A stretch of DNA of 64,000 bases from a virus: IMG/VR virus record IMGVR_UViG_3300047551_002812, positions 1-64,000 of that record. The stretch is one strand, 5' to 3'. The position numbers were made by a program, and so were the translations under genes. Positions 5,787-30,912 of this stretch are shown piece by piece; the first letter of the stretch is position 1; each line of letters starts with the position of its first letter. The notes beneath the pieces are model-generated. The model saw only the letters and a program-made list of their open reading frames with translations. It was not told the DNA's origin and searched no databases.

Positions 5787-5939
5787 CTACTCCTGAGGTG
5801 GTAATTTCCCACTACTAACGTAGTTCCTGAATACCTCCATCATCTCGTTGGTCGGGATCCCGCAATGAAGAGCGGCCCGGGGGACATTCCAACGGGCCAC
5901 GTAAAGCATCTCTATGGACTCCTTGAGTCTATCGTTCAC
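5787..5939 (-). CDS. Small cyanophage-type hypothetical protein
   Basis: GTG at 5939 overlaps the endolysin stop (GTGA); MLYVARWNVPRAALHCG. Confidence 0.6.
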   Translation of the reverse strand: MNDRLKESIEMLYVARWNVPRAALHCGIPTNEMMEVFRNYVSSGKLPPQE

Positions 5940-7210
5940 TTCTCGGCGATGATCCCCCACCCTGTACCCATACCCTCCACCATCCATCTCTTGTTGAGAT
6001 TAGCGTAGGAGTAACGTTGGAAGGCACCATTTGTGGAACCGTAGTACCCACCGTTGACAAGATCCAACTCGCCGTATGGGTCGTGGACTATGTAATGGGC
6101 TTTATCCTTGTCGTAGCCTATGACGCACACCCAGTGACCACCACCACGCGGAGCGGATACGTGGCCGTGATGGAGAATGCCAATGGGGACCGGGATACCT
6201 TTGTCGATCTGAGCCTCTATATCGCTCTGGAAGAGGTTGGTTGCTTTGCTAGCTTTTATCCCCAGGTCGCGCAGGGCCTGGATCTGGGCGTTGGGATCCG
6301 TGGTGTCCCCGTACCTGAATACGTAATTTTTCATATAGTAGTCATCCTCCTGCTCCGCTACCTCGATGGCTTTAGGGTTGAGATAGTCCGCCATCATCGC
6401 GCACGAGCTGGAGAAGCACATGCGATTGGCGTGGGTAGTACGACTATCTCGCTGAGGGAAGTACTTGACCTGAAGTACCTTGTACTCGTCTGACTTGCTA
6501 TCAACTTCGCTGATACCCTGTAGTCTCCAGTGAGGATTGTATATGTACCAGGCCCCGGCACCGTAGTCAAGGATGACCTTGGAGTGGATCCCCTCGTCGA
6601 CAATGTCGGAGATCTGGTAACCCTTACCTTTCTGCACCGCCTTCTTCATGTTGAAGTCAAGCTGGTAGGATTGGAGTGGTTCCTTCTTAAGTAGGGTGTC
6701 CTGCAGGGCTACTATTTGTTGTTTTTCCATAGAGTTCTTTTTCAGACCTTTGGACCACAGGGCACCTTCCGCGATCCTTCGCCTCTTGAGTCCTTCCTCA
6801 ACGCTAGTCCCAGGGTTTCTGTAGAGTAGTAACGAGTCTGGGATCAGGTTCCATTCCTTGTTCCTCAGTCTTCTGGAGATGGTCTCGAACCCTTCGGAGC
6901 CGTAGAACCTCGCGCCCAAGTTATAGGCAAAACTGAGCAGGGCCCCTATCTGCTCCTGAGACATCTCTGACAGGTACGGGATCCGTTCGAGAGCGGGCAT
7001 ATATCCCACCTCGAGTTGGTAGAGAAGGAGCTCATCAGCCTCCTTCTGAGTTATCTCCTCGCCGGGAGAGAACGGGGACCCGTCCTTTTTAACCGTGGAT
7101 CCCCAACCGATCGTGTAGGGTTTACCGCCACTCAGCGGATCAGGGTAAGCCTTCAGGCGGCAACCCTCGAACCTCTTGATAAGATCAACACCGTAGGTAG
7201 GTGGTTTCAT
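5936..7210 (-). CDS. Endolysin: GH24 lysozyme plus C39-like peptidase
   Basis: LIKRFEGCRLKAYPD..TIGWG, ALLSFAYNLG, GLKRRRIAE; C-terminal QRD..CFSSSCAM, GGHW, VHDPYG. Confidence 0.9.
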   Translation of the reverse strand: MKPPTYGVDLIKRFEGCRLKAYPDPLSGGKPYTIGWGSTVKKDGSPFSPGEEITQKEADELLLYQLEVGYMPALERIPYLSEMSQEQIGALLSFAYNLGARFYGSEGFETISRRLRNKEWNLIPDSLLLYRNPGTSVEEGLKRRRIAEGALWSKGLKKNSMEKQQIVALQDTLLKKEPLQSYQLDFNMKKAVQKGKGYQISDIVDEGIHSKVILDYGAGAWYIYNPHWRLQGISEVDSKSDEYKVLQVKYFPQRDSRTTHANRMCFSSSCAMMADYLNPKAIEVAEQEDDYYMKNYVFRYGDTTDPNAQIQALRDLGIKASKATNLFQSDIEAQIDKGIPVPIGILHHGHVSAPRGGGHWVCVIGYDKDKAHYIVHDPYGELDLVNGGYYGSTNGAFQRYSYANLNKRWMVEGMGTGWGIIAEK

Positions 7211-7667: not shown

Positions 7668-8141
7668 TTATTTCAACGACTTAGCACCATTGCATCTCCA
7701 TTTTCTCCTGGAGAGGCACATTGGAGTGCTGCGATCGGGTCCGGAGCAATCCATACCCTCCGACTTCATATCCCCTAGCGAACGTGCGCAGTAGGAATCG
7801 CCACGTTTAGTCCCAGGAGCGATCTTATAACCCTTAGCCCCGTACCGAACCTTCCTCACCCTTCCGGTTTTTGAGTCTTTATACGTATGCGTATACTTCT
7901 TACCATCATCAGCGTAGGTGATGTTATTCGCCTCGTTGGAGGTTTCTGGACGTCCAGTAGCAACTGTCCTCCAGTACTCGTACTCATCCTCGGACATCTC
8001 GAGTTCGTCGTCAAGCATATCCGACTTGTCCTGGTCGCCGCGGAGATGGGACTCCTTTGTGATGGGTGGCCCGACCACCTCGCCGAATGAGGGATGAACG
8101 GACCAACCTTCGGGTAGCGTGAAATCAGTTTCTGTAGACAT
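7668..8141 (-). CDS. Hypothetical protein with basic C-terminal domain and N-terminal PEGW motif
   Basis: LPEGWSV; [22 protein letters not shown]. Confidence 0.75.
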
Positions 8142-8757
8142 TGGAACTTACCGACCAACCATCAGGAACACTGACCTCGGAGTGGTTATCGCACTCGCAC
8201 TCCCCGTTATCTGAGGATTTAGGAACGCAGTTGGGAACCGACCTACCTCCTTTTCCTTTCTTCATCCCTACCATCTCGTAATCCTTCCAGCATGGATCGG
8301 AGTCCTCGGCGTTATCGGATGTCTCTTTGTCACTACCCATAGCCTCCTTGATCGCATTGTCCCGTGAGATCTTCCAATCCTCGGAATCAACATCACCATC
8401 GTTATCTTGGTCTTTACCCTCGGCCATGTCCTCGGCACCTTCATCCTCTCCGGGGTGCGAGAGGTGCTGGGAAACGGCGGTGAGGTAGTCCTGAGCCTTG
8501 GTGATTTTCGCCTGGGCCCACTCGGGTAGGTCGGTCATCTCCGAGACCATATCGTCGATTTTTTTGGCCATCTCCATGATGGAGCGAACATCACCCTGGG
8601 CCATCTGCCCCTCCTCTGGCTCCGCGGAGTCGTACTTCGACTTACCGGCTTTATCAAGGGCGATCGCGATGGCTTGCTTCTGGGGTTTACCAGATTCCAT
8701 CTCTCGCTTTATATTGCCAGAGATGGTCTCCTGGCTAGATCCTTCTCTGAGGGGCAT
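8125..8757 (-). CDS. Multi-minidomain putative internal head protein
   Basis: [14 protein letters not shown] domain, [41 protein letters not shown]-terminal VPDGW. Confidence 0.75.
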
Positions 8758-8785
8758 AGGACTATGGCGTATATGGTGCTTTAAA

Positions 8786-8938
8786 CTACTGTTTTTCCTG
8801 CTCTTTCCAACCTTCCGGAGGTTGAGGTTTTGCCTTTATCACTCTAAATAAGGTGTCAGTATCATCACTATCAAGCGCTTTTTTTCTCATAGCGAGACGC
8901 TGTTTCTGATACTCTGTTAGATTTTCGTATGGGTCCAT
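8786..8938 (-). CDS. Unlisted 50-aa protein ending [14 protein letters not shown]
   Basis: Translated by hand: [50 protein letters not shown]; fills the gap between neighbours exactly. Confidence 0.75.
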
Positions 8939-8941
8939 GGT

Positions 8942-11584
8942 TTAGTTTGCATCCTCCAGATAGATAACTTTAACCTTACCTGCTTTAAGTTCGTTAGCTC
9001 CCCACGATATTCCTTGCCAATCCGCTAAAGAATGTTCTTCGACTTTTGCAACTCGACATTGCTTACCTCTCTGCATAAGTGATTCTCGTTCAAGTTGATT
9101 AGCCGAAAGAGGCGCTATACACTTGATATTTTTTCCTGTGTAAACAGTTATAAAATTGAACTTCTCCGGATAACCACGGTAAAAAATATCCAGCACGCCG
9201 TTTCTCCCCATTTCGTCCCCTTCGTGATCATCTGTGTAGGATGCAAATCCAGTGGATTCATAAATATCCCCAGGTCTTAGATTTTTTATCGCGTCAACAG
9301 AATCAGTGTATTTTGTAGAGATTTTATTCATTCTGTAGAACGTACCAACATTTGTATGATCAGGTATTTGGTCAAGAGCTTCCCTCATCGTGTCAGCAAC
9401 TTGGTTGAAAAATTTCACATCTCCTGGAGTAAAAGAGGCAGTTTTTCCTCTAATTAAAGCATTTAAATCCTCATATAGTACATCACTATACTCTCTCAAA
9501 ACATATTTTCCATCTGGCGAGAGTTTCTTGAGTGCGTCCGGATCACCGCCATAGGAACCCGCGTAATTAGTATTCAATTGTCTATCTACCTCATTAACTA
9601 CACCTTTGAATATTTTGTCATTAAAAAGATTTTTATCACTTGTTAAATTAAAGTCTAACTTTGAGGCAACTGGTCCCTGCGGTGTCCCTGCCTGTTGGAT
9701 GGGAACTGCGGGAGTCGCACCGCCAGGTGCCTGAGCGGGACCTTGCACCAACTGATCCAAGGCGTCCTTAACTTCACCCCTTACTTTCTTATCCCAGTCG
9801 GGGTCATTGGAGTCTATACCCGAAGCCAGCGAGAAGGCGCCTTTCATCGCCTCGTCGACATCCTTCCAGTTCAGTCCTTTGTTCCCGGAGATCTTAGCGA
9901 TCTCCTGCGCAGAGATGAGTAGAGCGTTAACTCTGCGTTTGAATTTCGCTTTAACATCCGAGTCTAGTTTGGATGAATCGACCGCGTTCAGTAGTTCATT
10001 GTAATTATCTGCCAATGCCTGGATTTGATTGGTCCAGAGGTCCTTGTAATCGTCGTCGGAAGCGTTCTGCCAGAACTGCTTACCCTGACTCCCTGACTTG
10101 AGAGTCCATAGCTCCATAGGTATGGCTCCGTAGTCCTTACTCCCGCCCATAGCGCGGAAGTTGAAAGTCCCACCGGAGTCGATCCTGATAAGATTACCCT
10201 TATCATCCACCATCATGTTATCGTTGGTCAGTCCGAGGAAATCCCAGTTAGCAACGAGAGCATCTGCCACGAAGGACTTCTTGATTTTATCTCCGATACC
10301 GAGGGCTTTTATCTCGTCGAACGGTAGATCGCTGATGGTCCGACCATTCTCTATGAACTTATTCACCAACCTACCATCGGCGGAGAGTTTGGACTGAACC
10401 GCGGAGGAGGGAAGGGACTTGCCCAAAATATTATAGATTGAGTTGGCTGTGCTTTCGGCCACATTCTGTCCAGGAGCGCCACCGTCCTTAACAACGTATT
10501 TCTCGTTTGTGGAATCACTCTCGTAGAGTCTTGGATTAGTGGAACCGGGTAGGGTCTTCGTTGGTTTGAATTCGTTACCACCGATCTTAAGTACATCACC
10601 GGTGAAAGTTGGCGTAGTATTTTTCGGAATATTCCAACCGTCTGCGACTTTAGGAGCTGGAGCTGGAGCTGGAGCTGGAGCTGGAGCTGGAGCTGGAGCT
10701 GGAGCTGGAGCTGGAGCTGGAGCTGGAGCTGGAGCTGGAGCGGGGGTCTGACCCCCAGATTTTTGATTCTGCCACTGTATTACTCCCTTCGCAGCATTTA
10801 TTAGACCTGGTTTTTTGCTATCGGGAGTCGCGTCCCAGACGCCCTTCAACTTGTCCTTGATTTGAGGGAAAGCTTTCTCGAGTAGGTCTTTGTTATCCTC
10901 AAAGAGTTTGTCATTATCCGCGGTTCCCTGGGAAGTCGGTGCGGGTGCGGGAGCAGGGGTGGCCGCCGGAGCCGGAGCCGGAGTCTTCTTAACACTCTTA
11001 GCCTGGGCTTTCTGATCGGCCTCCGCTTTGAACTTCTTCGCCTGCTTCAGGTATGCCTGTTTCTCCTTTGGAGAGAAGGTTGACCAGTTATCGCTTATAA
11101 GCGTCGCTCCTGTCCCCCACTTAGCTTTATACCCCTCCATCGTCTCTTGGAGCATCTGCTTGTCTTCCTCTGGCGACAACTGAGGAGGAGCTTTAGGAGC
11201 TTTAATAGCACTGCTCTGTGGCTTAGGTTGCTGTGTTTTCCACCCCTCAGGTACCTGAGGAGCGTTCTTATCGGCTTCTTTCGTGCTTGGTTGGGACTGA
11301 GCGGGTGGCGGAGTTCCGGCCCCCTGTTGCTCTCCCGGTTTTGCTCCCTTGGGTTCTGCTGGTGTAGACTTTACGTTTTTTGTCTTCTTGGACTCGGAAG
11401 TTTTCTTTCCGACATTGTTCCTACGACCGGCTTTCGCGTAAGCAATCGCCGCCGCCTGAGCCGGAGTATAAACCTCCCTTGCCGGATCGAGGTAGGGCGG
11501 GTCGTAACCGCACCCGTCTTTGTTAAGAATACACCGGATGTTTTCTTGGATGATCTTGTCCGAAGATCCCTCACGTAAAGGCAT
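8942..11584 (-). CDS. Kinase-like (HipA/PI3K fold) plus VIP2-like ADP-ribosyltransferase fusion with Pro-Ala linkers
   Basis: YVVK..AES..DALVANWD..DN..IRIDSGG kinase-like core; Y..LNALIRG, FYR, STGFASYT, ERE (R-S-ExE) ART motifs. Confidence 0.8.
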   Translation of the reverse strand: MPLREGSSDKIIQENIRCILNKDGCGYDPPYLDPAREVYTPAQAAAIAYAKAGRRNNVGKKTSESKKTKNVKSTPAEPKGAKPGEQQGAGTPPPAQSQPSTKEADKNAPQVPEGWKTQQPKPQSSAIKAPKAPPQLSPEEDKQMLQETMEGYKAKWGTGATLISDNWSTFSPKEKQAYLKQAKKFKAEADQKAQAKSVKKTPAPAPAATPAPAPAPTSQGTADNDKLFEDNKDLLEKAFPQIKDKLKGVWDATPDSKKPGLINAAKGVIQWQNQKSGGQTPAPAPAPAPAPAPAPAPAPAPAPAPAPAPAPKVADGWNIPKNTTPTFTGDVLKIGGNEFKPTKTLPGSTNPRLYESDSTNEKYVVKDGGAPGQNVAESTANSIYNILGKSLPSSAVQSKLSADGRLVNKFIENGRTISDLPFDEIKALGIGDKIKKSFVADALVANWDFLGLTNDNMMVDDKGNLIRIDSGGTFNFRAMGGSKDYGAIPMELWTLKSGSQGKQFWQNASDDDYKDLWTNQIQALADNYNELLNAVDSSKLDSDVKAKFKRRVNALLISAQEIAKISGNKGLNWKDVDEAMKGAFSLASGIDSNDPDWDKKVRGEVKDALDQLVQGPAQAPGGATPAVPIQQAGTPQGPVASKLDFNLTSDKNLFNDKIFKGVVNEVDRQLNTNYAGSYGGDPDALKKLSPDGKYVLREYSDVLYEDLNALIRGKTASFTPGDVKFFNQVADTMREALDQIPDHTNVGTFYRMNKISTKYTDSVDAIKNLRPGDIYESTGFASYTDDHEGDEMGRNGVLDIFYRGYPEKFNFITVYTGKNIKCIAPLSANQLERESLMQRGKQCRVAKVEEHSLADWQGISWGANELKAGKVKVIYLEDAN
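10653..10741. repeat. Perfect hexanucleotide tandem repeat (GGAGCT)14 encoding (Pro-Ala)n
   Basis: Directly visible in the sequence. Confidence 0.98.
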
Positions 11585-11609
11585 TGCAACTACACTACTT
11601 AGTAGTTCT

Positions 11610-11810
11610 TTAAACTCTGTCTTTACGTTCTTCTTTATGTATCCAGTCCTTTAGTCCGGACACGTAATCCCGGAGAATCTGGGCCTGCTCCAGGTGCCAT
11701 CTGTCCCCGGTCTCGAAGTGGAGCCGGGTGTGATTATCTATGGCCTTGAGAATGCTATGTATAGGAGCGTTCCAACACTCCCTTACAGGGGTGTTCCACT
11801 CTCGGGGCAT
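11610..11810 (-). CDS. Cyanophage-type hypothetical protein
   Basis: MPREWNTP..WNAPIHSILKAIDNH..WHLEQAQILRDYV. Confidence 0.75.
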   Translation of the reverse strand: MPREWNTPVRECWNAPIHSILKAIDNHTRLHFETGDRWHLEQAQILRDYVSGLKDWIHKEERKDRV

Positions 11811-11811
11811 C

Positions 11812-11970
11812 TCATGGCTCCTTGGAGTGCCAACCCTCGGGGACTTTTATCTGGACCTTTTGCTCCTTACTCTGAAAGAGATCCGGGCCTTCGGTCATAT
11901 CCTCCTCATCTTTTTTCTTCACGGAGATCATACCTTCTCCGCCCGCTCTTGCCTGATCCAGATTCATCAT
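11812..11970 (-). CDS. Unlisted 52-aa protein ending IKVPEGWHSKEP
   Basis: Translated by hand: MMNLDQARAGGEGMISVKKKDEEDMTEGPDLFQSKEQKVQIKVPEGWHSKEP*; ATGA overlap with the upstream stop. Confidence 0.75.
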   Translation of the reverse strand: MMNLDQARAGGEGMISVKKKDEEDMTEGPDLFQSKEQKVQIKVPEGWHSKEP

Positions 11971-28725: not shown

Positions 28726-29136
28726 TTAGTTACTGTTATCGATCAAGCCATCATCCCAAGCCTGTTGCACGTTCTGAGATTTAGTTCCCCACTTCAGATT
28801 TGAGATAGCGTTGTTAGTCCCATCATTGTCTTTGTGAAGAATGACAATATTCTCTCCTTTGGGTTTAGGCGGACCGAACAACTCCATCACCATTTGATGA
28901 AGTGGTGGTTCTTCACGGTTACCACTCCACGTTAGATTCACTCTCTGATGCTTACGTCCATCATCGCGAGGTTTACGGAGTTCAGAGTCACCTTTTCTTC
29001 TCACTTTGCCGGTATTACTCACTTCGTATGGAGAGTTGTGCCACTGTTTCCATACTTCTCTAGAGTCAGAGAAGTTCCTACCTCCCTGTTCTCTACCTCT
29101 CACTCTCCATCCGTCCGGAGTCCGAAAATTATTCAT
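28726..29136 (-). CDS. NUMOD4/HNH homing-endonuclease-like protein with N-terminal PDGW
   Basis: EVWK..YEVSNTGKVR, HQMVMELF, HKDNDGTNNAISNLKWGTKSQN. Confidence 0.85.
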   Translation of the reverse strand: MNNFRTPDGWRVRGREQGGRNFSDSREVWKQWHNSPYEVSNTGKVRRKGDSELRKPRDDGRKHQRVNLTWSGNREEPPLHQMVMELFGPPKPKGENIVILHKDNDGTNNAISNLKWGTKSQNVQQAWDDGLIDNSN

Positions 29137-30384: not shown

Positions 30385-30912
30385 TCAGATCTCACTCTCT
30401 GGGTAGGTGTAGTGCATCTGGTCGGAGATGGAGGCGGGGAGGGTGACGTTAAGAACCTTGTACGCGGCCTCTAGGGCCTCCTTGCGGGTGGATTTGTGCG
30501 GACTCTTGTAGGTTCCTTGATTGCCACGGAGCTTGGGGATGACGGAATAGAAGTACTCCTTGTCCGGGTGAGTGACCAGGTAGTAGTGGTAACCCCTCTG
30601 CCGGCCATCTTCAACCACCACCTCTTTATCCTCAAGGTGGAGTTGTCCGACGTCGTAGGGTTCGGAACCTTCCGGCTCCTGCTGGTTGGATTCCTCACCA
30701 CCGTACGAGCAGTGCTCGGAACTCCCACGCGTAGTCTTTGCAGCCCCAAACTTTCCTTCCGGATCGACGTACTTGGAGTGGTAATCATCCTCACCGGTCT
30801 GAGGACCCGGTCTGACCAACTCCAGGTTTTTACTGGTTTTGCCAGTGTCGGCCCCCGGTTCGGCGTACTCGGCCAGCCCCCAACCCTCGGGGATCTTTAG
30901 TTCGTTCTTCAT
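30385..30912 (-). CDS. Hypothetical late protein with N-terminal PEGW
   Basis: MKNELKIPEGWGLAEYAE; GTTTAAAG 22 nt upstream. Confidence 0.75.
   Translation of the reverse strand: MKNELKIPEGWGLAEYAEPGADTGKTSKNLELVRPGPQTGEDDYHSKYVDPEGKFGAAKTTRGSSEHCSYGGEESNQQEPEGSEPYDVGQLHLEDKEVVVEDGRQRGYHYYLVTHPDKEYFYSVIPKLRGNQGTYKSPHKSTRKEALEAAYKVLNVTLPASISDQMHYTYPESEI

Follow-up and report, generated by a model that had tools for sequence, protein, structure and literature searches.

A modular phage protein carrying an atypical kinase-like domain and an ADP-ribosyltransferase behind a conserved leader in a freshwater relative of cyanophage S-TIM5

The enzymes with which phages modify host proteins, whether injected or early-acting, are central to host takeover and counter-defense, and to our knowledge few of them have been characterized beyond T4 Alt and the T7 kinase. 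T4 Alt is known to be packaged and cleaved and to target RNA polymerase. ADP-ribosyltransferase (ART) domains are the commonest protein-modifying module in the polyvalent phage proteins (Iyer, Burroughs, and Aravind 2017, PMC5512222), and a 2026 paper (PMC13645617) describes the T7 gp0.7 kinase as phosphorylating many host proteins and disarming defense systems. The gene described here lies on the minus strand at 8942-11584 of a 64,000-nucleotide stretch of viral DNA (the window; positions 1 to 64,000 of the 79-kb IMG/VR record IMGVR_UViG_3300047551_002812) and encodes 880 amino acids followed by a stop codon. Its open reading frame (ORF) comprises an N-terminal leader, linkers, helical modules, a kinase-like domain, and an ART domain. 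The evidence tips slightly toward a reading in which the gene, transcribed with the structural genes, specifies a modular effector with two host-modifying enzymes that is docked in the virion by its leader and active after ejection. The conserved leader with kinase-like and ART cargo is new here; the Alt-like or polyvalent effector theme is already known.

The protein may work like T4 Alt and the polyvalent proteins, an analogy with likenesses and differences on each side. Alt and the window protein are both large and both have an ART of R-S-E type in their C-terminal part (residues 411-597 in Alt), both genes adjoin tail or baseplate genes, and in both an N-terminal part has no known enzymatic function. 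The homology is nevertheless weak and confined to the ART (hhalign E 6.6e-4, probability 27%), with none beyond the ART core, and the N-terminal leader is unlike that of Alt. Comparison of the kinase alignment with Alt by hhalign, a weak test because Alt was a single sequence, detected no kinase-like domain. As in the polyvalent proteins, two disparate enzymatic domains occupy one polypeptide and the gene is placed among late or structural genes. MuF or portal domains are moreover found fused to relatives of the kinase domain, whereas the window protein has neither and carries a phrog_2423-type leader and P[ED]GW motifs instead. The kinase reported in polyvalent proteins is without the C-terminal subdomain and occurs mainly in Verrucomicrobia, Chlamydia, and Bacteroidetes (PMC5512222), a description that does not fit the window domain, in which a helical C-lobe is present. 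Neither "PI3K" nor "HipA" appears in that paper, and a kinase-ART fusion of this kind is unmentioned in a limited set of reviews. T7 gp0.7, for which no homology is claimed, is also a phage-encoded kinase but differs in being made early and not packaged.

The source phage is a freshwater relative of S-TIM5, a TIM5-like myovirus, with a large terminase ~70% identical to that of S-TIM5 and a gp25-like protein ~49% identical to its S-TIM5 counterpart. Several studies of freshwater and aquatic metagenomes contain near-identical DNA, and megablast of the region against cultured phages gave no match. The kinase-ART junction near 9665 is bridged by contigs from four runs, each of a different study, and the fusion is therefore real rather than an assembly artifact; contigs from the metagenome runs break only at the long Pro-Ala repeat. 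The domain architecture is common to 27 orthologues. Conservation is described below from an alignment of 28 orthologues, on which a full-length AlphaFold2 model was also built. In this model residues 325-614 and 650-880 each form a mixed α/β domain. The ORF and every motif listed in the original prediction, made from the letters of the DNA, are present, namely MPLREGSS, VPEGW, the Pro-Ala runs, the kinase motifs, and the R-S-ExE of the ART.

The kinase-like domain (residues 325-614; 9743-10612, minus strand) is defined by its AlphaFold2 fold and its invariant residues. Modeled alone from 21 sequences it reaches a predicted local distance difference test score (pLDDT) of 91 and a predicted template modeling score of 0.88. 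Foldseek against the Protein Data Bank (PDB) places it with PI3K, Vps34, PI4K, CtkA, and Stk1 (E ~1e-4). A fold search independent of Foldseek returns CotH (Z 13.1, 222 residues, root mean square deviation 3.7), PI4KIIalpha (Z 13.0), CtkA (Z 12.8), actin-fragmin kinase (Z 11.5), HipT (Z 11.2), and HipA (Z 10.9), with nearly all of the 54 chains at Z of at least 8 being kinases, Fam20 and Rio kinases among them. The motifs are located at VVK 364-366, E377, NWD 446-448, DN 455-456, and IDSGG 468-472. K366, E377, D441, N446-W-D448, D455-N456, and D469 are invariant in the 28 orthologues, and the equivalent columns are invariant in 46 more distant relatives. Judged by position in the predicted secondary structure, without superposition, these residues would supply the β3 lysine, the αC glutamate, the catalytic-loop Asp/Asn, and the metal-binding aspartate. 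Both features of the protein-kinase-like superfamily, a bilobal fold and the catalytic residues, are found in the domain. Because of this fold and the invariant catalytic set the domain is assigned as a putative atypical kinase, and it looks catalytically competent. The kinase fold claimed in the original prediction is thereby upheld by a confident model whose nearest solved structures are atypical kinases.

The atypical kinases CotH, PI4KIIalpha, CtkA, actin-fragmin kinase, and HipA/HipT share with the window domain the bilobal fold, at Z 11-13 over 200-229 aligned residues, as well as the β3 lysine, αC glutamate, catalytic-loop Asp/Asn, and metal-binding aspartate. The IDxGG of the window domain presumably resembles the IDNG of PI4KII. 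The differences are an identity of only 9-16%, the failure of any Pfam model of those families to match, and an LPGST sequence in place of the glycine-rich loop. No family is assigned to the domain by Pfam (E up to 10) or NCBIfam, and a single-sequence PDB search returned low-complexity Pro-Ala matches only. An exhaustive phmmer search gathers 3073 representative clusters in the kinase family, 1086 of them at E ≤1e-10. The wording "HipA/PI3K-like" of the original prediction is fair as a fold class, but membership of either family is unsupported by sequence. A single one of the 46 relatives matches a HipA profile (HipA_2, E 6.7e-4), the window protein giving no such Pfam match up to E 10. PF00454 (PI3K/PI4K) does not match either; the catalytic loop WDxxGLxxDN with IDSGG is not of the DRHxxN/DFG type, and the similarity to this family is one of fold alone.

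In the 46 relatives the kinase-like domain occurs with MuF (17), portal (1), ART (17), and NUDIX (6) domains and in a few cases with a 2H/LigT phosphoesterase, and the viral structural matches include 1200-residue "portal" and "ADP-ribosyltransferase" proteins that align across both domains. Several stretches of kinase domain per polypeptide are seen in giant relatives, with five in P0005 (3416 residues), three in P0016 (3130 residues), and two in P0117 (7004 residues). ART, NUDIX, and 2H/LigT are all linked to NAD+ or ADP-ribose. Their co-occurrence with the domain speaks for a different activity, in which it would not be a protein kinase and would phosphorylate a small molecule or an NAD+/ADP-ribose-derived group, catalyze a different transfer, for example AMPylation or glutamylation, or regulate the neighboring ART, in the manner of other atypical kinase folds. 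In phages ST4 and Dolphis the second gene past the ART-annotated one codes for a NUDIX hydrolase or a nucleotide phosphatase, and lipid and sugar kinases are among the structural neighbors; both observations point in the same direction. Such an activity is nonetheless considered rather unlikely, as the full kinase catalytic set is invariant and the top structural neighbors are mostly protein kinases (CotH, CtkA, actin-fragmin kinase, HipA/HipT, and Fam20C). In sister proteins, moreover, this leader is joined to a canonical PF00069 kinase, an indication that selection has favored the phosphorylation of proteins.

The ART domain (residues 650-880; 8945-9637, minus strand) is separated from the kinase-like domain by residues 616-638, which are disordered in the AlphaFold2 model. 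Pfam, profile, and fold comparisons all support the R-S-ExE ART that had been proposed from the DNA. PF03496 (ADPrib_exo_Tox) matches at E 1.2e-6 with 28.5 bits against a cut-off of 23.4 and is found at 36-60 bits in all six orthologues tested. The ART family profile matches the Vis toxin (E 1.4e-13), followed by CDTa, VIP2, Certhrax, SpvB, C3larvin, Tre1, and C3, and Foldseek with the ART model returns Vis (E 7e-8) and Tre1 (template modeling (TM) score 0.75). R751 (in YRMN), S782-Y-T, and E832-R-E834 are invariant in the 28 orthologues and align with the YRG, STS, and EAE of Vis. The catalytic arginine is R751, the residue aligned to the YRG of Vis, and not R712, which might be chosen by eye. 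The domain is, as far as its motifs and model indicate, a C3/VIP2-type ART of the R-S-ExE class, ExE being the arginine-directed variant within the C3/VIP2 clade. Vis, Tre1, Certhrax, CDTa, iota toxin, and ExoS, all of the C3/VIP2 type, share with it PF03496, the R, S-x-T, and E-x-E motifs, and the fold (TM 0.61-0.75, target side). The window ART differs from them in being part of a phage multidomain protein and in having an insertion at residues 788-804, which is poorly modeled.

The C-terminal end of the gene has a composition of its own. GC content drops from ~0.52 in the flanks to 0.38-0.42 exactly over 8800-9700, an interval that holds the ART and a downstream 50-residue ORF ending in PPEGW (8786-8938, minus strand), and the low-GC boundary is located at the kinase-ART linker. 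The identity of the ART to its orthologues is bimodal, at 49-65% or 29-43%, with kinase identity being flat. Because of the GC drop and the bimodal identity the ART tip and the 50-residue ORF are described as a low-GC, apparently swapped cassette. At one related locus (L007) the 50-residue ORF is like that of the window, as is the ART end, and at another (L005) there is an unrelated ORF and a differing ART end. A joint cassette whose two parts differ together between these loci would be in keeping with a polymorphic-toxin-like weapon directed against competing phages or neighboring cells, the 50-residue ORF then being an ART inhibitor or immunity partner. The nearest folds also include the antibacterial Tre1 and a Listeria ART-ARH toxin, whose structures were both determined together with the respective immunity protein. 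This explanation is nevertheless considered very improbable, since the 50-residue ORF bears a P[ED]GW tail itself, a feature found in other proteins of this cluster too, lysogeny genes and a secretion context are absent, and the pairing is based on two loci only.

The part of the protein that is best conserved is the N-terminal leader (residues 1-57; 11414-11584, minus strand), which reads MPLREGSS...AAAIAYAKAGRRNN with MPLREGSS as residues 1-8. Leader identity across orthologues is 75-93%, compared with 44-51% for the kinase and 29-65% for the ART, and leader residues 1-17 match phrog_2423 (E 8.4e-10). A tblastn search of cultured phages with the 57-residue leader gave no match, and the ESM Atlas returned only leads for it (score 0.78), one of them a cluster with DUF6496 in 11% of its members. 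The MPGRE N terminus of the upstream 667-residue protein was considered as a leader start and dropped, the annotated S-TIM5 orthologue starting differently.

The leader is followed in the AlphaFold2 model by a disordered basic linker (residues 58-134) that holds VPEGW at 111-115 and thus, at its end, the first P[ED]GW motif (P112-E-G-W115; 11240-11251, minus strand). A second motif, A314-D-G-W317 (10634-10645, minus strand), is positioned immediately ahead of the kinase domain. W317 hardly varies among orthologues, but A, D, E, or Q is found at the E/D position, for which reason a protease site with Glu at P1 was considered unlikely. In the six-frame translation of the window [VILP]P[ED]GW occurs seven times, against 0.25 in shuffles. 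Five of these copies fall in five consecutive genes (7668-11970), near the C terminus of three small proteins, near the N terminus of one, and inside the effector. An additional P[ED]GW copy is seen at a gene start at 30891, and a related TPDGW at a gene start at 29118.

A leader search found 77 longer leader-bearing proteins. Besides kinase-ART proteins they include one with the ART as its sole cargo (P0183), three that carry a PF00069 kinase of canonical type (P0190, P0210, and P0226), a CW..NCVP protein type, and many cargo-less proteins of 96-140 residues that end 3-8 residues past the P[ED]GW motif. The leader with P[ED]GW is a constant carrier, and its cargo is exchangeable, being the ART alone, a canonical kinase, the CW..NCVP protein, or none. 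In P0177 and P0202 a long leader, a P[ED]GW motif, and a short-leader CW..NCVP protein make up a single ORF, so that the units act like beads, free to be strung together or separated.

Two small helical modules and Pro-Ala linkers connect the basic linker with the kinase-like domain. Helical module 1 (residues 135-195; 11000-11182, minus strand; AlphaFold2 pLDDT 73-90) is a helical hairpin with an HMG-box-like C-terminal half. Its Pfam match to HMG_box_2 (E 0.006) is below the cut-off and serves as a lead only, and the WSTFSPKEKQAYLKQAKKFKAE segment in the same residues is like the C-terminal half of an HMG box. From this resemblance the module may be a DNA-binding element inside the effector. 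A short Pro-Ala linker at residues ~200-216 leads to helical module 2 (residues 222-276; 10757-10921, minus strand; pLDDT 75-93), a three-helix repeat of the module 1 kind that is present in some orthologues and missing from others. An ESM Atlas search with the helical modules gave no usable match. The long, disordered Pro-Ala repeat linker occupies residues 277-312 (10649-10756, minus strand), and in the AlphaFold2 layout it is drawn as residues 277-322, closing with the ADGW at 314-317. Contig breaks occur in several runs within the Pro-Ala repeat region 10647-10964. One run has a 6-nucleotide insertion (GCCGGA) after 10964, and linker length therefore varies within populations.

The gene is located in a minus-strand run together with tape-measure-like and gp25-like genes. 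An upstream 52-residue ORF (11812-11970, minus strand) ends in VPEGWHSKEP. Its S-TIM5 orthologue (AEZ65742.1) is a "virion structural protein" by GenBank annotation alone, and the S-TIM5 orthologues of the tape-measure-like and gp25-like proteins are likewise annotated as virion structural. On the other side is a 210-residue gene (8125-8757, minus strand) with a short form of the leader, matching phrog_2423 over residues 1-43 (E 2.3e-17), and a C-terminal VPDGW. Synteny in related loci runs from a ~600-residue protein through the tape-measure-like and gp25-like proteins, a 141-residue protein, and a 53-residue P[ED]GW protein to the leader protein with or without cargo. Next come a 50-residue P[ED]GW protein and the short-leader 210-residue protein, then a variable slot, and after it a further P[ED]-type protein, a membrane protein, and a lysozyme/C39 protein. 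In L009 and L074 the slot is occupied by a stand-alone ART (ART-like genes at L009:8881-9852 and L074:9301-9822) and in L075 by a stand-alone kinase of canonical type (L075:9241-9891), all identified from N-terminal sequence only. Such contents mark the locus as a kinase and ART hot spot. The two-domain protein that closes the cluster in the window (5936-7210, minus strand) is conserved there and joins a phage lysozyme (PF00959) to a C39-like cysteine peptidase. S-TIM5 has no such gene in the syntenic position, and the product might serve as an endolysin or be carried in the virion as a lysin.

The phrog_2423 family is itself found near head genes in other phages. In the cultured phages phiEap-2 and P-HS2, the two examined closely, the phrog_2423 gene is an ORF of 43-44 residues flanked by a MuF-type head-morphogenesis gene on one side and by the scaffold and major-head genes on the other, and in Thalassomonas phage BA3 the phrog_2423 match adjoins the small terminase gene. 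From gene context only, namely from the virion-gene neighbors, this placement of phrog_2423, the MuF and portal fusions of kinase relatives, and an upstream motif common to structural genes, we infer packaging in the virion and injection; the timing of expression and the substrates are presumed as well.

Several observations weigh against an effector docked in the virion and acting on host proteins after ejection. Stand-alone ART and kinase genes without a leader are found at the same locus in related phages, and fusion to the leader may therefore not be required for such cargo. The leader is modeled at low confidence (pLDDT 42-62) as two short helices, the kinase domain is without a characterized close relative, and the gene is absent from cultured TIM5-like phages. 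Atypical kinase folds, moreover, sometimes catalyze other reactions. The leaderless genes would suit a late intracellular enzyme that stays out of the virion and works in the cell where it is made, with the leader as a host-binding or substrate-targeting module; the very high conservation of the leader would also fit the binding of a conserved host machine. The T4 ARTs ModA and ModB are unpackaged and act in the producing cell. This possibility is regarded as unlikely, given that phrog_2423 genes lie inside the head-morphogenesis modules of unrelated phages, that virion genes flank the locus, and that MuF or portal fusions are frequent among relatives of the kinase domain.

The upstream region of the gene has a promoter-like word, AGTTTAAAG (11608-11616, minus strand), 24 nucleotides ahead of the ATG and followed by a TA-rich element. 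The word occurs 10 times in the window against 0.28 expected, and the upstream promoter motif noticed in the original prediction is thus real; the neighboring 210-residue gene has its own AGTTTAAAG at 8779-8787. The pattern GTTTAAAG has 14 sites in the window on both strands, mostly 20-40 nucleotides ahead of start codons and often with a TATA-like element 3-6 nucleotides further on, among them sites at 75, 3000, 7634, 8786, 11615, 17964, 30942, 32040, 54526, 55145, 55518, and 56418. The genes preceded by it include the kinase-ART gene, its 210-residue neighbor, and several structural genes, and the pattern is a candidate for a promoter specific to the phage. No match to the T4-type late promoter TATAAATA occurs in the window, and scans of the window for sigma-70 promoters and terminators were no better than shuffles. 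We do no more than infer the label "late", from the presence of the motif ahead of structural genes as well.

For an effector that is loaded into the virion and acts after ejection the following sequence of events can be envisaged. The gene would probably be co-transcribed with structural genes from the GTTTAAAG-type promoter, and the phrog_2423-type leader with P[ED]GW would dock the protein in the assembling virion. The cargo would be tethered by the long disordered basic and Pro-Ala linkers and the two small helical modules, and would consist of the atypical kinase-like domain with its apparently complete catalytic set and a predicted arginine-directed C3/VIP2-type ART. After DNA ejection both enzymes would modify host proteins, using ATP and NAD+, leading to takeover or disarming of the host.

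In a wider proposal, offered tentatively as a possibility that falls short of probable, the leader and P[ED]GW would constitute an unrecognized general virion-loading system, comparable with the T4 capsid-targeting sequence or MuF and serving exchangeable cargo in TIM5-like phages, and the kinase family would be an undescribed standard part of injected effectors. The kinase family is large and has no Pfam or NCBIfam model; it recurs in MuF/ART/NUDIX polyvalent phage proteins and in phage proteins annotated only as ADP-ribosyltransferases. One conserved leader with swappable kinase and ART cargo amounts to a natural experiment on the delivery signal and the substrates. If packaging is untrue, the protein would be an ordinary member of the polyvalent-effector theme; if it is true, the leader and the motif would be a new handle for putting proteins into virions.

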